Assembly (NCBI GenBank): GCA_036558385.1
Contig: DATBFS010000128.1
Span: 23,732-87,731 of the forward strand
Origin: Solirubrobacterales bacterium
GTDB taxonomy: Bacteria > Actinomycetota > Thermoleophilia > Solirubrobacterales > 70-9
Length of the DNA stretch: 64,000 nucleotides
Direction: 5' to 3'
Of this stretch, positions 46,425 through 50,543 are shown piece after piece; position 1 is the first letter of the stretch, and the number at the start of each line of letters is the position of its first letter. The notes under the pieces are model-generated. The model was given only the letters and a program-made list of their open reading frames with translations. It ran no database searches and was not told where the DNA came from. The translations under genes were made by a program, and so were the position numbers.

Positions 46425-46631
46425 GATGGCTGGGTAGGGGAGGCTGGGCCGGCGCCGTGCCGGGACGAGGATGGTCTGGGACGGGGTCGCTGGTGTAGGT
46501 ATCCGGCACGATCGCCAACGACCGACAACCCGCAGATGTAGGTCGTTCGCGATGGGTCTCGTGAGGGAGGGGCCGCGGCCTGTGCCGGCCTGGATGATCG
46601 GGCGGGGCGGCCGTCGCCCTACCCAGCCATC
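46425..46631. repeat. 207-bp element bounded by perfect 15-bp inverted repeats, with a second internal long stem
   Basis: GATGGCTGGGTAGGG (46425-46439) is the exact reverse complement of CCCTACCCAGCCATC (46617-46631). The inner arms 46509-46523 and 46541-46555 pair at 13 of 15 positions. The element exactly fills the gap between convergent genes, and the right arm touches the GT2 stop codon. Confidence 0.6.
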
Positions 46632-47706
46632 ACCTGAGCCACGTGCGGACGATCGCGTTCGCGAAGCCGATGCCATAGCGGACCACGGCGGGCTTCTTGG
46701 AGTGGCCGTGGCGGCGGTTCGCGACGGTTACCGGCACCTCCTTCGCCGGGATGCCGCGCTTGATCGCCTCGATCAGGAACTCGGAGGTGTGGAACTGCTC
46801 CTGGCGCAGCACGAGCTGGGGCAGGACGTCGCTGCGGACGGCGCGGTAGCCGTTCGAGCAGTCGCTGACCTTGGTGCGCGTGATCAGGGACACCGTTCGG
46901 TTGAAGAACACGATCCCCATCTCACGCGCGTAGTGGTTCGGCTCGGCGTCGCCGAGGACCCGTGACCCGTGGGCGACGGCGACCTCGCCGGAGAGGACCG
47001 GTCCGACGAGGCGCTCCATCTCCGACGGCAGGTGCTGGCCGTCCGCGTCCAGCGTGACGACGACCGTTGCGCCCGAGTCGGCCAACAGCCGATAGCCGGT
47101 GCGAAGCGCCGCGCCCCCGCCGCGGTTGATCACGTGCCGAGCGACGACCGCGCCGTGCTGCGCCGCGACGTCGCCGGTCGCGTCCCGCGAGCCGTCGTCG
47201 ACGACCAGCACCGCGGTCTCCACTCCGCAGACGGCGGCGGGGATCCGGTCGAGCACCCAGCCGACGCTCTCGGCCTCGTTGTACGCGGGGACGAGCACCC
47301 CGATCCGGTCGCGAAACCGCTCGGGATGCCCGCTCGCCTTGAACTGCTCCCAGGCCAGTCCCTCGAGCACCTCAGAGAGCTCGCGGGTGATCCGCGACCC
47401 CTGCGTCAGGGCCCGGACGACCAGGAGGAAGAGGATCAGGATCGCGAACACGGCCACGCCCACGATCCGGGTGCCGTTCGAGCGCTTGAACGAGAATGCG
47501 CTCAGGATCGTGTCCAGGAGCTCGGTGCCGGACACGATCGCGAGCCCGAGCGCGATCACGAGCAGGATCAGCACGTCGGCGTTTCGAAGCGAGCGCCGGC
47601 GCCAGATCGCAAAGCCGGCGATCAGGGCCGCGAGCCCCAGCCCGACCGCCCGGATGGCGGTCAGCTCCGGGGGCAGGAGATTCGCCTGCAAGATCGCGGA
47701 TTCCAC
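46630..47706 (-). CDS. Glycosyltransferase family 2 with an N-terminal multi-TM anchor (polyprenyl-phosphate sugar synthase-like catalytic domain)
   Basis: GTG at 47706. Three N-terminal hydrophobic segments come first. The catalytic domain follows: [20 protein letters not shown]...[12 protein letters not shown]...TLDADGQH (DxD)...NGYRAV. The long tracked ORF beyond 47706 is rejected. Confidence 0.8.
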
Positions 47707-47754
47707 GGCCGCAAGAGAATAGATGGGGGGTCGGTCCGCTACCCTCGCGCGGTC

Positions 47755-48957
47755 ATGCGGATCCTGATCCTCGGGGGTGACGGATACCTCGGCTGGCCCA
47801 CGGCGATGCGCCTCTCGGCGCGCGGGCATGAGGTCTCCGTCGTCGACAACTTCTCGCGGCGGCGCTGGCACGTCCAGCACTCGACGGACTCGCTGATCCC
47901 GATCCGGCCGCTCGCGGAGCGAATCGACGCCTGGCGTGCGGCCTCCGGCAACGAGATCTCGAGCTTCGTCGGGAGCATCGAGGATGCCGAGTTCATCGAC
48001 GCGGTGCTCACCGACACGGCGCCCGAGACGATCGTCCACTACGGCGAGCAGCCGTCGGCCCCGTTCTCGATGATCTCGCGCAAGCACGCCCTCGAGACCC
48101 AGCGGACCAACGTCCTCGGGACGCTCAACCTGCTGTTCGGGATTCGCGACAAGGTTCCCGACTGCCACCTCGTGAAGCTCGGAACGATGGGCGAGTACGG
48201 AACGCCCGACATCGACATCGAGGAGGGGTTCATCGAGATCGAGCACAAGGGGCGCAGGGACACGCTCCCGTTCCCGAAGCAGCCCGGCTCGCTGTACCAC
48301 CTCTCCAAGGTCCACGACTCACACAACATCCACTTCGCGTGTCGAATCTGGGGCCTTCGCTCGACCGACCTGAACCAGGGGGTGGTCTACGGCGTCGAGA
48401 CGGACGAGACCTCCCTCGACGAGCGCCTCGCGACGCGGTTCGACTACGACGAGGTGTTCGGCACCGTGCTCAATCGCTTCTGCGTCCAGGCGGTCATCGG
48501 CCACCCCCTCACCGTCTATGGCGAGGGCGGTCAGACGCGCGGGTTCCTCAACATCCGGGACACGCTTCAATGCGTCGAGCTGGCGATCACGAACCCGCCC
48601 GAGCTCGGCGAGTACCGAGTCTTCAACCAGTTCACGGAGCAGTTCAGCGTCTCCGAGCTCGCCGAGCTCGTGAAGCGCAGCGCCGGCGAGCTGGGTTACG
48701 ACGTCGAGATCCGCAAGTACCCCAACCCGCGGGTCGAGGCCGAGCAGCACTACTACAACGCCGTCAACACGAAGCTCCTCGACCTGGGCCTCGAGCCGCA
48801 CCACCTCGGCGAGGAGCTCGTCCGCTCGATGCTGGAGACGATCCAGCGGCACAAGGACCGGGTGATCGAGCGCGCGATCCTGCCCAGCACCCGATGGAAG
48901 CCCGGCGAGCTGGAAGTACCCCAGATCGCCGCCCTCCGAGCACCCCGCGCCAACTAG
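47755..48957 (+). CDS. sqdB: UDP-sulfoquinovose synthase (SQD1/SqdB/Agl3 family)
   Basis: Near-collinear with plant SQD1 as I remember it. Shared blocks include [132 protein letters not shown] and [14 protein letters not shown]. Confidence 0.9.
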
Positions 48958-49019
48958 CGCCGCCGGCGCCTCAGGGTCGTCGACTTGACTCCGGCCGGGG
49001 GTCGAAGTACGTTGGGACC

Positions 49020-50543
49020 GTGAACAAGCGAGCCCGACGGGAGGTGCTCGCCACATTCGGGATGTGCGCTCTCGGCGCCCTTGCGGCCGCCCCGGCGGGC
49101 GGCACGGTGCAGGGGGACTTCGACGGCGACGGGCGCGGCGACCTCGCGATCGGCGCGCCCGGCGAGAACGTCGGCGGCGGGGCGAACGCCGGCGCCGTGA
49201 CAATCGTGTACTCGGGCGCGACCGGGCTCAGGCCGCAGACCGCCAGGCTGTTCAGCGAGAACACCAAGGGCGTGCCTGGAACGCCCGGCTCGACGGATCG
49301 CTTCGGCACCGCGCTCGCCGCGGGGGACTTCGACCGCGACCACGAGGCCGACTTGGCCATCGGCGTGCCCGGCAGATCGGTCGCGGGCGAGTCGGGCGCG
49401 GGGGCCGTGGTCGTCCTGTACGGGACGAAGCATGGTCTGCGCGCCAGGGGAAGCCGGGCGTTCACCCAGAACACGAAGGAGGTGGAGGACCACGCCGAGG
49501 CTGCGGACCTCTTCGGAGGCGTGCTCGAGACGGGTGACTTCAACGGGGATGCCCGCGACGATCTGGCGGTGGGTGTCGGTCAGGCCAATCTGAACGGCGA
49601 GAACGGTGGTGCCGGCGCCGTGGAGGTCCTGTACGGCTCCGGGAAAGGCCTTCGCACCAAGGCCGACCAGCTCTGGACGCAGGACAGCCCAGGCGTCGCG
49701 GATGCCGCCGAGGGGGCGGACTTCTTCGGCGGCGCGCTGGCGAGCGGCGATCTCGGCCGCGGCAAGCGCGACGACCTCGCGATCGGCGTCCCGGCCGAGG
49801 CCCTCGCGGGCGGGTTTGCGGCGGGCGCGGTCAACGTGCTCTATGGAACGCCCAAGCGTCTGAGGGCGAAGGGCGATCAGTTCTTCAGCCAGGACGACCC
49901 AACCGAGATCGCCGGTGACGCCGAGCCGGGCGATCTCTTCGGGAGCGCCCTGACGAGCGGAGACTTCGACCACGACGGTCACGCCGATCTCGGGGTCGGC
50001 GTGCCGCGCGAGGACTTCGGCGCGGTCGACGTCGGCGCGGTGAACGTGATCTACGGCTCGGCGACGGGGCTCGTCCCCGAGGGAAACCGGGTCTTCCTTC
50101 AGGGCCAACCGGGCCTCGGCGACAGCGCGGAAGCCGGGGACATGCTCGGGTCGTCCCTCGCCAGCGGGCGCTTCGACGCGGGAAGGACCGCCGACCTGGC
50201 CGCAGGCGATCCGGGTGAGGACGCCCAGGCGGGCGGCGTCAACGTCGTCTACGGCTCGCCGACGGGGCTCGCGAGCAACGACTACACGATCATGTTCGGG
50301 GCGGCCGCCGGCGAAGGGCAGGGAGCCGCGCTCGGCGCGGGACGGTTCGGCGAGGACAGCCGCGGCGACCTCGCGGCGGGGCTGCCGGGTGACACGGGGG
50401 CGACCGGCGGGCGGATCGCCGCCTTCTACGGTCGGCCCGCAGGCCTCGGGTTCGGCGCCGTGGATTACATCGACCAGGGCGATCCCGGGATCCCGAGCGC
50501 GGGCACGGCGTTCGATCGCTTCGGGGCTGCGCTGGCACCCTAA
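49020..50543 (+). CDS. Secreted FG-GAP repeat protein (integrin-alpha-like beta-propeller)
   Basis: GTG at 49020, then a signal peptide (LATFGMCALGALAAAPAGG). There are at least 7 repeats of the pattern GDFDGDGxxDLAIGxPGE...GAVxVxYG. The upstream 227 codons of the tracked ORF are rejected. Confidence 0.8.
   Translation: MNKRARREVLATFGMCALGALAAAPAGGTVQGDFDGDGRGDLAIGAPGENVGGGANAGAVTIVYSGATGLRPQTARLFSENTKGVPGTPGSTDRFGTALAAGDFDRDHEADLAIGVPGRSVAGESGAGAVVVLYGTKHGLRARGSRAFTQNTKEVEDHAEAADLFGGVLETGDFNGDARDDLAVGVGQANLNGENGGAGAVEVLYGSGKGLRTKADQLWTQDSPGVADAAEGADFFGGALASGDLGRGKRDDLAIGVPAEALAGGFAAGAVNVLYGTPKRLRAKGDQFFSQDDPTEIAGDAEPGDLFGSALTSGDFDHDGHADLGVGVPREDFGAVDVGAVNVIYGSATGLVPEGNRVFLQGQPGLGDSAEAGDMLGSSLASGRFDAGRTADLAAGDPGEDAQAGGVNVVYGSPTGLASNDYTIMFGAAAGEGQGAALGAGRFGEDSRGDLAAGLPGDTGATGGRIAAFYGRPAGLGFGAVDYIDQGDPGIPSAGTAFDRFGAALAP

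Follow-up and report, generated by a model that had tools for sequence, protein, structure and literature searches.

A candidate polyprenyl-phosphate-sulfoquinovose module in Solirubrobacterales: UDP-sulfoquinovose synthase paired with a DUF2304-type glycosyltransferase

Sulfoquinovose is discussed nearly always in connection with sulfoquinovosyldiacylglycerol (SQDG), the lipid of phototrophs whose head group it forms, and to our knowledge the N-glycans of archaea are its only established non-lipid use. What, then, does a gene for uridine diphosphate (UDP)-sulfoquinovose synthase, sqdB, do in a Solirubrobacterales bacterium, a non-phototroph? The question is raised by a stretch of 64 kilobases (kb) with a guanine-plus-cytosine (GC) content of ~70% (assembly GCA_036558385.1, contig DATBFS010000128.1, positions 23,732 to 87,731; the whole stretch is called the window below), in which sqdB lies head to head with a gene for a family 2 glycosyltransferase (GT2) that carries an N-terminal membrane domain of the DUF2304 type. 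The data indicate that sqdB and the divergent DUF2304-GT2 gene probably constitute a two-gene module of a polyprenyl-phosphate-sulfoquinovose pathway, in which both the donor and the acceptor of the GT2 are predicted.

The answer begins with the nature of the first enzyme. In a search of the PDB, SqdB matches SQD1 of Arabidopsis (1qrr) over residues 2-383 with E = 5e-161; the two align without a gap and share 230 of 382 residues (60.2% identity). The catalytic residues Thr145, Tyr182, His183 and Lys186 (SQD1 numbering) are all kept, and the N-terminal GxxGxxG motif, which binds nicotinamide adenine dinucleotide, reads GGDGYLG. The NCBIfam model for UDP-sulfoquinovose synthase, NF041015, spans the protein from end to end (1-384 of 384) at 505.8 bits, a score below its curated equivalog cut-off of 575. 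On this homology SqdB is accepted as a UDP-sulfoquinovose synthase, as a preliminary description of the window had already named it.

The second question is whether the GT2 is a true partner of SqdB or merely a neighbor. One genome per GTDB species was scanned with SqdB, which yielded 80 loci (numbered with the prefix L, as are all loci below) whose SqdB is 71-93% identical to that of the window; where a record names a taxon, it is Solirubrobacterales, a different group of Thermoleophilia or, less specifically, Actinomycetota. Of these loci, 69 from Thermoleophilia are informative, their sequence extending 4 kb or more beyond sqdB on its upstream side. The GT2 gene is present in 68 of the 69, always on the strand opposite sqdB, and only L030 is without it. 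The pair, furthermore, survives changed flanks. Specifically, L016 and L021 hold it without the gat/ilv genes that flank it in the window, and in L028, L055, L056 and L070 a shorter, helix-free GT2 (55-59% identical, with the same best families) is encoded head to head with sqdB, and the genes around the pair are unrelated. On a Gaiellales contig, sqdB (71% identical) is found 19 nucleotides (nt) upstream of a DUF2304-GT2 gene on the same strand.

This second, tandem arrangement recurs at greater distance. Metagenome contigs were scanned with a profile built from distant GT2 relatives alone, which gave 37 loci with a GT2 33-47% identical to that of the window, 29 of them informative. A SqdB homologue (44-69% identical) is encoded in 24 of these 29, and in 22 of the 24 sqdB stands upstream of the GT2 gene on the same strand, with most gaps between -20 and +63 nt; the distant contigs span 33-73% GC. 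Among 72,556 plasmids, the four best GT2 matches are the four haloarchaeal plasmids that carry a SqdB-like gene as well, within 2-15 kb. Because the two genes are adjacent in two gene orders, within changed flanks and over a wide GC range, chance or inertia is an unlikely cause of their adjacency. The survey thus bears out the earlier proposal that the conserved partner of sqdB is here a GT2 and not a transferase of family 4 (GT4) or GT8. That proposal had named a GT2 neighbor not conserved with sqdB across relatives as grounds for its refutation, and with 68 of 69 and 24 of 29 informative loci it withstands this test.

The sequence of the GT2 points to the acceptor. Its catalytic domain (residues 134-358; Pfam PF00535) contains the motif VTLDADGQH, and its best NCBIfam families are AglJ, PpgS, a haloarchaeal dolichyl-phosphate hexose transferase and ArnC. 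The best sequence matches in the PDB are the dolichyl-phosphate mannose synthase (DPMS) of P. furiosus and ArnC, with DADGQH of the GT2 aligned to DADLQH. Hydrophobic helices occupy residues 16-34, 45-63 and 81-99. In this region the window protein itself matches DUF2304 (PF10066) weakly (E = 0.081, profile positions 7-95 of 106), and 51 of 62 relatives aligned with it end to end match the same family. A search of 1.84 billion cluster representatives returned 356 at E <= 1e-30; among the best 150 of them, about 80 are 340-370 amino acids (aa) long, and most of these combine three helices predicted at the N-terminus with a C-terminal end resembling TWLR. The window protein keeps 14 of 14 family-invariant residues, and hhalign aligns its residues 14-358 at a probability of 100% with a distant set whose close homologues almost all carry DUF2304. 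Haloarchaeal DUF2304-GT2 proteins also align with it end to end at 36-37% identity, and two of them are annotated as 'DUF2304 family protein'; in public databases, the GT2 homologues found bear no more specific names than 'glycosyltransferase family 2' or 'hypothetical protein'.

By this profile evidence the N-terminal helices of the GT2 are a diverged and fused DUF2304 domain of the GacJ/Rv3632 type. GacJ forms a complex with GacI, the synthase of N-acetylglucosamine (GlcNAc)-P-undecaprenol, and stimulates it, Rv3632 stimulates PpgS, and fusions of DUF2304 to GacI homologues are on record (bioRxiv 10.1101/180810). Since DUF2304 partners are known for this enzyme class, the architecture of the GT2 is a known one and points specifically to a polyprenyl-phosphate acceptor. 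As such, the GT2 is predicted to be a polyprenyl-phosphate sugar synthase of the GacJ-GacI and Rv3632-PpgS type. The preliminary description had placed it in this group, which the matches to AglJ, PpgS, ArnC and DPMS together with DUF2304 support; it had also seen the three N-terminal helices, which are present as described, and had called them unusual, which they are not in view of the known fusions.

Candidates for a second transferase, acting after the GT2, are encoded at many of the related loci. Two paralogous PMT_2-type glycosyltransferases of fold class C (GT-C) have their genes between the GT2 gene and sqdB, on the GT2 strand, in 42 of the 69 informative loci. They are 430-450 aa long with many membrane helices, are 42% identical to each other and both score above the Pfam PMT_2 threshold; in L076 the proximal GT-C gene overlaps the reading frame of the GT2. 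A profile of 27 GT-C proteins has an invariant Asp in the first loop and matches in the PDB only GT-C oligosaccharyltransferases (STT3/AglB), weakly, at E ~0.006; single GT-C sequences found nothing there. The tandem cassettes of L149 and L164 also have genes for PMT_2 proteins nearby, and a GT39 gene adjoins the GT2 gene in Haladaptatus pallidirubidus. GT-C enzymes take polyprenyl-phosphate sugars as donors. That they share an operon with the GT2 argues more strongly than any other finding for the GT2 as the source of such a donor, and it gives extra support to the lipid-carrier route that the preliminary description had put forward.

The available data are compatible with a model in which SqdB, given its close homology to characterised enzymes, would convert UDP-glucose and sulfite into UDP-alpha-D-sulfoquinovose. 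The GT2, a candidate UDP-sulfoquinovose:polyprenyl-phosphate sulfoquinovosyltransferase, would then move the sugar to undecaprenyl or decaprenyl phosphate at the inner membrane face and form polyprenyl-phosphate-beta-sulfoquinovose; homology suggests its class, and the conserved gene neighborhood suggests its donor. Subsequently, the lipid-linked sulfoquinovose would be flipped across the membrane, and GT-C transferases would place alpha-linked sulfoquinovose on an extracytoplasmic acceptor, for instance a glycopolymer of the wall or membrane or a protein. GT2 is an inverting family, and GT-C enzymes are inverting as well. The chances are about even that a route of this kind, with GT-C enzymes placing sulfoquinovose on envelope polymers or proteins, is widespread in abundant soil Actinomycetota (Solirubrobacterales and Gaiellales) and in other lineages, possibly including haloarchaea.

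Several findings weigh against this pathway. The family scores of the GT2 all lie below the equivalog cut-offs (97 bits against 325 for AglJ, 93 against 370 for PpgS, and 72 against 375 and 50 against 529 for the others), and by these scores none of the named enzymes is its orthologue. Its AlphaFold model is of moderate confidence (mean predicted local distance difference test score 66.9); Foldseek ranks ArnC first, with glucosyl-3-phosphoglycerate synthase (GpgS), DPMS and GtrB close behind, and on this model the fold search does not separate an ArnC-type from a GpgS-type enzyme. Synteny inside Solirubrobacterales is by itself weak evidence, because gatCAB, an NDH-2 gene, a zinc-ribbon gene and ilvBN keep the same order too. 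Members of the GT2 family also occur without a nearby sqdB, namely on a deltaproteobacterial contig and two actinobacterial contigs (L089, L090, L091) and in L133 and L169, and in Haladaptatus halobius a related GT2 gene lies beside two other genes for short-chain dehydrogenases/reductases (SDR), 14 kb from the SqdB-like gene.

The GT-C step raises a further difficulty. Roughly one relative in three, like the window, has no GT-C gene at the locus. A search of the 64 kb with the relatives' GT-C proteins finds no homologue at E < 1e-3, and none is found within 10 kb of the pair in the window's closest relatives. The window locus is a reduced, two-gene core, and its GT-C step must lie elsewhere in the genome or be missing. 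In the soluble-GT2 loci L055, L056 and L070 there is likewise no recognisable GT-C beside the pair, which is flanked by TetR-type regulators and unrelated genes; for this reason, the two-gene module could form an end product alone.

Could that end product be a lipid? The GT2 would then be an analogue of SqdX that transfers sulfoquinovose directly to a non-polyprenyl membrane lipid such as diacylglycerol, and the resulting sulfolipid might serve, for example, phosphorus sparing in soil. The pair stands alone in the window, in 21 loci of the adjacent type and in the soluble-GT2 loci, which mirrors sqdB-sqdX, and other Actinomycetota pair sqdB with lipid-type GT2s, such as the HpnB/CruG-like one of Pseudonocardia. 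The cyanobacterial enzyme MgdA, furthermore, is a GT2 that glycosylates diacylglycerol. We nevertheless regard direct transfer to a lipid as unlikely, given that the closest characterised families of the GT2 all use polyprenyl phosphate, that GT-C enzymes, which need a polyprenyl-phosphate donor, share an operon with it in the 42 relatives and recur in other lineages, and that DUF2304 is known only as a partner of polyprenyl-phosphate synthases (bioRxiv 10.1101/180810).

A second alternative separates the two enzymes. Here the GT2 would use another donor, such as UDP-glucose or UDP-GlcNAc, and would stand near sqdB through co-regulation of envelope genes or inherited order, while SqdB would feed a canonical SQDG synthase encoded elsewhere. 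The frozen order of unrelated genes around the pair in Solirubrobacterales and the family members without a nearby sqdB are what such a separation would look like, and GT4 genes do lie 45 kb away in the window, which is the span of our gene search here. Against these points, the adjacency holds in two gene orders, with changed flanks and on contigs with GC fractions of 0.33-0.73, and the gap between sqdB and the GT2 gene is often below 60 nt or an overlap. A GT4-like gene is found within 10 kb of sqdB in none of the 80 genome loci and in one of 80 metagenome loci. Use of another donor is, on balance, quite unlikely.

The GT4 genes of the window also bear on the earlier statement that the classical SQDG partners are missing from it. 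This stands for the surroundings of sqdB, where there is no GT4; it is less certain for the window as a whole, which has GT4-like sequence at 268-1419 and ~1647-2504, ~45 kb from sqdB, in a search that used no models specific to SqdX, SqdD, SqdA or SqdC. The best matches of the GT4 at 268-1419 are generic GT4 families of the exopolysaccharide type, and Wzy-type and chain-length/kinase-type genes at 2625-5725 lie next to the GT4-like sequence.

It is very improbable that the product of the SqdB homologue is some nucleotide sugar different from UDP-sulfoquinovose: the sub-cut-off NCBIfam score and the two further SDR enzymes that accompany the haloarchaeal SqdB-like genes speak for it, and against it stand the gapless 60% identity to SQD1, which is far above the ~40% by which the characterised archaeal enzyme Agl3 resembles SQD1 (PMC4388408), and the four intact catalytic residues.

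The preliminary description had further suggested that the secreted protein encoded downstream of sqdB belongs to the system, possibly as its target. The protein is as described: FG-GAP repeats are recognised by PF01839 (E = 2.9e-27, four repeats above threshold), seven G[DR][FL]x..D[LV][AG]xG motifs follow each other ~70 residues apart, one N-terminal hydrophobic segment makes it a predicted secreted protein, and its gene begins 62 nt after sqdB (48958-49019) on the same strand. The closest relative of the window, L085 (96% identity in SqdB), matches it colinearly over 37.3-60.5 kb at 85-91% nucleotide identity, except for 48948-50547, and in L085 ilvB starts 30 nt after sqdB. No FG-GAP homologue is found at E < 1e-3 in the 80 loci. 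The FG-GAP gene is a lineage-specific 1.6-kb insertion (~48948-50547) outside the conserved module, and the view of it as a conserved part of the system falls with its absence from L085 and from all 80 loci. A dedicated FG-GAP target or partner of the sulfoquinovose system is hardly credible, since its position 62 nt behind sqdB, its predicted secretion and the secreted repeat proteins near sqdB in a few loci (PD40/RTX in L012, cadherin-like in L030) are set against this absence and against the mixed kinds of inserts at the locus, which include regulators, an aquaporin and a methyltransferase.

These inserts are an observation in their own right. In Solirubrobacterales the intervals next to sqdB form a hotspot for insertions, among them AAA_16-TPR-LuxR regulators, a secreted PD40/RTX protein, a DUF6529 protein, a methyltransferase and an aquaporin (Table 1). 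A common theme among those between the GT2 gene and sqdB was considered and rejected, as they comprise LuxR-type regulators, the PD40/RTX protein, DUF6529, the methyltransferase and the aquaporin. At the other end of the FG-GAP gene, a promoter-like CTGGCA-17-TACAAT at 50532-50560 ends 10 nt before the ATG of ilvB. Since the closest relative keeps the TACAAT box, the ilvB leader may be very short; the FG-GAP insertion ends just upstream of this box, and the CTGGCA hexamer lies inside the end of the FG-GAP gene.

How does the proposed polyprenyl-phosphate-sulfoquinovose module compare with known systems? It resembles PpgS (Rv3631), Rv3632 and Rv3779 of Mycobacterium tuberculosis, which serve to put galactosamine on arabinogalactan, in combining an actinobacterial synthase with a DUF2304 partner and a GT-C; Rv3779 is the GT-C acceptor enzyme of that system. 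The PpgS model is the second-best NCBIfam match of the GT2, yet at 93 bits against its cut-off of 370 the two are not orthologues, and the donor of PpgS is UDP-N-acetylgalactosamine. ArnC/ArnT, GtrB/GtrC and DPMS/PMT follow the same two-step logic and include the closest solved structures for the catalytic domain, whereas the GT2s ArnC, GtrB and DPMS have C-terminal membrane helices or separate subunits in place of an N-terminal DUF2304, and their sugars and acceptors differ. GacI, GacJ and GacL of Streptococcus pyogenes, which build the GlcNAc side chain of the group A carbohydrate, likewise comprise a GT2 synthase, a three-helix DUF2304 activator and an external GT-C (10.1101/180810). Unlike in that GlcNAc system, the neighbor here is a UDP-sulfoquinovose synthase, DUF2304 is fused N-terminally, and the GT-C is of the PMT_2 type and missing from the window. 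By this comparison, what would be new with respect to GacI/GacJ/GacL, PpgS/Rv3632/Rv3779, ArnC/ArnT and DPMS/PMT is the sugar, and the logic is already known.

With the sulfoquinovose systems the likeness lies in the first enzyme. SqdB-SqdX and SQD1-SQD2 share it and have the same layout of two genes, one for a synthase and one for a transferase (PMC13436972); in contrast, their retaining GT4 is replaced here by an inverting GT2 that belongs to the polyprenyl-phosphate class, and the host is a non-phototroph. In the same review, from 2026, SQDG is still reached by way of SqdB-SqdX, and Actinomycetota go unmentioned (PMC13436972). Agl3 and Agl1 of Sulfolobus acidocaldarius offer a precedent for a non-lipid use of UDP-sulfoquinovose, in an N-glycan, by a synthase clustered with a membrane-bound glycosyltransferase; Agl1, encoded beside Agl3, is predicted to add sulfoquinovose directly to the lipid-linked N-glycan (PMC4388408). 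The linkage of sulfoquinovose in the Sulfolobus glycan is beta (PMC11407970), whereas a route through GT2 and GT-C would predict alpha. In the literature searched, no paper on sqdB in Thermoleophilia or on a polyprenyl-phosphate-sulfoquinovose route was found.

If the polyprenyl-phosphate-sulfoquinovose pathway is real, sulfoquinovose would join the sugars that are carried by monophosphate lipid carriers, and its transfer to the envelope in abundant soil heterotrophs would mean that sulfoquinovose conjugates of a new class exist and that envelopes of the Gram-positive type bear an anionic surface modification new to them. Non-phototrophs would, in turn, become a source of sulfoquinovose in soils and an added source term for the sulfoquinovose cycle.

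The remaining features of the locus provide its context (Table 1). The open reading frames (ORFs) agree with the three genes and the 48- and 62-nt gaps first described, and in L085 an independent gene call gives a 358-aa GT2 and a 48-nt gap, as in the window. Searches for homologues with SqdB and with the GT2 as queries returned only close relatives of 80-97% identity. The pair is flanked by gatCAB and a gene for a zinc-ribbon membrane protein on one side and by ilvBN on the other. Homologues of the zinc-ribbon gene occur in most loci with the gatCAB/ilvBN context and in none of the six loci L016, L021, L028, L055, L056 and L070; its position is conserved only in the gatCAB...ilvBN type of locus, with no evidence of membership in the system. 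A promoter scan reported only the ilvB site and no site in the 48-nt gap between the GT2 gene and sqdB. Promoter-like hexamers spotted by eye ahead of sqdB, the GT2 gene and the FG-GAP gene, including -10-like ones in the 48-nt gap, fail the criteria of the scan, and the GT2 gene and sqdB both probably have very short leaders or none.

Table 1. Positions of the features discussed; window numbering unless a locus is named
Feature	Positions	Strand	Length and basis
GT2 (DUF2304-GT2 fusion)	46630-47706	-	358 aa; ORF and Pfam PF00535
DUF2304-like N-terminal membrane domain of GT2	47377-47706	-	residues 1 to ~110, three helices
Divergent intergenic region GT2/sqdB	47707-47754	.	48 nt
sqdB (UDP-sulfoquinovose synthase by homology, SQD1/SqdB family)	47755-48957	+	400 aa; SQD1 and NF041015 matches
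FG-GAP gene (predicted secreted, seven repeats)	49020-50543	+	507 aa; PF01839
Small membrane protein, C-terminal zinc ribbon	46079-46408	+	convergent with GT2; zinc-ribbon Pfam matches below cut-off
Inserts beside sqdB	L004 6906-9971; L008 4975-8184; L012 7537-9942; L016 9006-9959; L021 7670-8392
Aminotran_5 genes	L143 3196-4476; L153 4189-5580; L088 7155-8306		same-sized ORFs in L144, L147, L151, L166
Large membrane proteins without Pfam match	L137 2080-4086, 8057-10231; L158 3049-5112; L160 5017-6933; L088 1254-3284; L092 1316-3904; L028 6835-9183

Further genes recur around sqdB and the GT2 gene in other lineages. In several tandem cassettes of high GC content, a class-V aminotransferase (Aminotran_5, 412-469 aa) is encoded directly upstream of sqdB; it resembles cysteine desulfurases and cysteine sulfinate desulfinases and might supply sulfite to SqdB. 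In L161 (2695-5805), whose tandem cassette is on a low-GC contig (0.33), the genes directly upstream of sqdB encode a Polysacc_synt_2 dehydratase and a protein that has an FGE-sulfatase domain. The haloarchaeal loci L083, L084 and L087 (plasmids of Haladaptatus and Natrinema) have their SqdB-like genes (40-42% identical) inside glycan clusters that also hold two more SDR enzymes, the DUF2304-GT2, a GT39, an LPG_synthase_TM protein and sulfatase-like genes, and the sugar made from these clusters may be modified. No flippase was recognised at the window locus. LPG_synthase_TM (PF03706) proteins adjoin DUF2304-GT2 genes in unrelated lineages (L083 4237-5244, L089 10042-11043, L092 3958-4956, and L134 and L160) and are possible flippases for the lipid-linked sugar. 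Large proteins with 8-16 predicted helices and no Pfam match flank some of the sqdB-GT2 pairs; those of Table 1, of 640-860 aa with ~11-16 helices, may be unclassified GT-C-like transferases; DUF6077 proteins flank other sqdB-GT2 cassettes.

Elsewhere in the window, genes for exopolysaccharide or O-antigen-like polymers are found at 238-5725 and 17613-23659. They comprise GT4-like sequence at two places, two Wzy_C genes, one of them with a long C-terminal extension, a chain-length/tyrosine-kinase-type gene, a Bac_transf priming transferase and a GalE-like epimerase. The preliminary description had drawn the Wzx/Wzy-type genes into the system as a possible source of the glycan to be decorated; they lie 25-47 kb from the pair, and nothing links them to it. 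At 39147-39815 and 39907-40377, two neighboring genes encode small membrane proteins that are alike, the first with a tail rich in Gly and Pro.

Plasmid-borne sqdB loci of other Actinomycetota were considered as instances of the same system and rejected, as their GT2s are of different types. In L081 (2970-10149), on plasmid pPA12743CP of Pseudonocardia autotrophica, sqdB (60% identical) lies head to head with a GT2 gene of the HpnB/CruG-like lipid or carotenoid type, which is followed on its strand by genes for a GNAT protein, two hypothetical proteins and a MurJ-like flippase, and a gene for a pyridoxal-phosphate-dependent, cysteine-synthase-like protein lies downstream of sqdB. In L082 (4430-15945), on a plasmid of Rhodococcus qingshengii, a SulP transporter is encoded upstream of sqdB (45% identical), and after sqdB come genes for a protein with weak likeness to BcsB, for a processive GT2 of the PgaC/NodC-like kind and for an alkyl sulfatase; this cluster could encode a synthase for a sulfoquinovose-containing polysaccharide.

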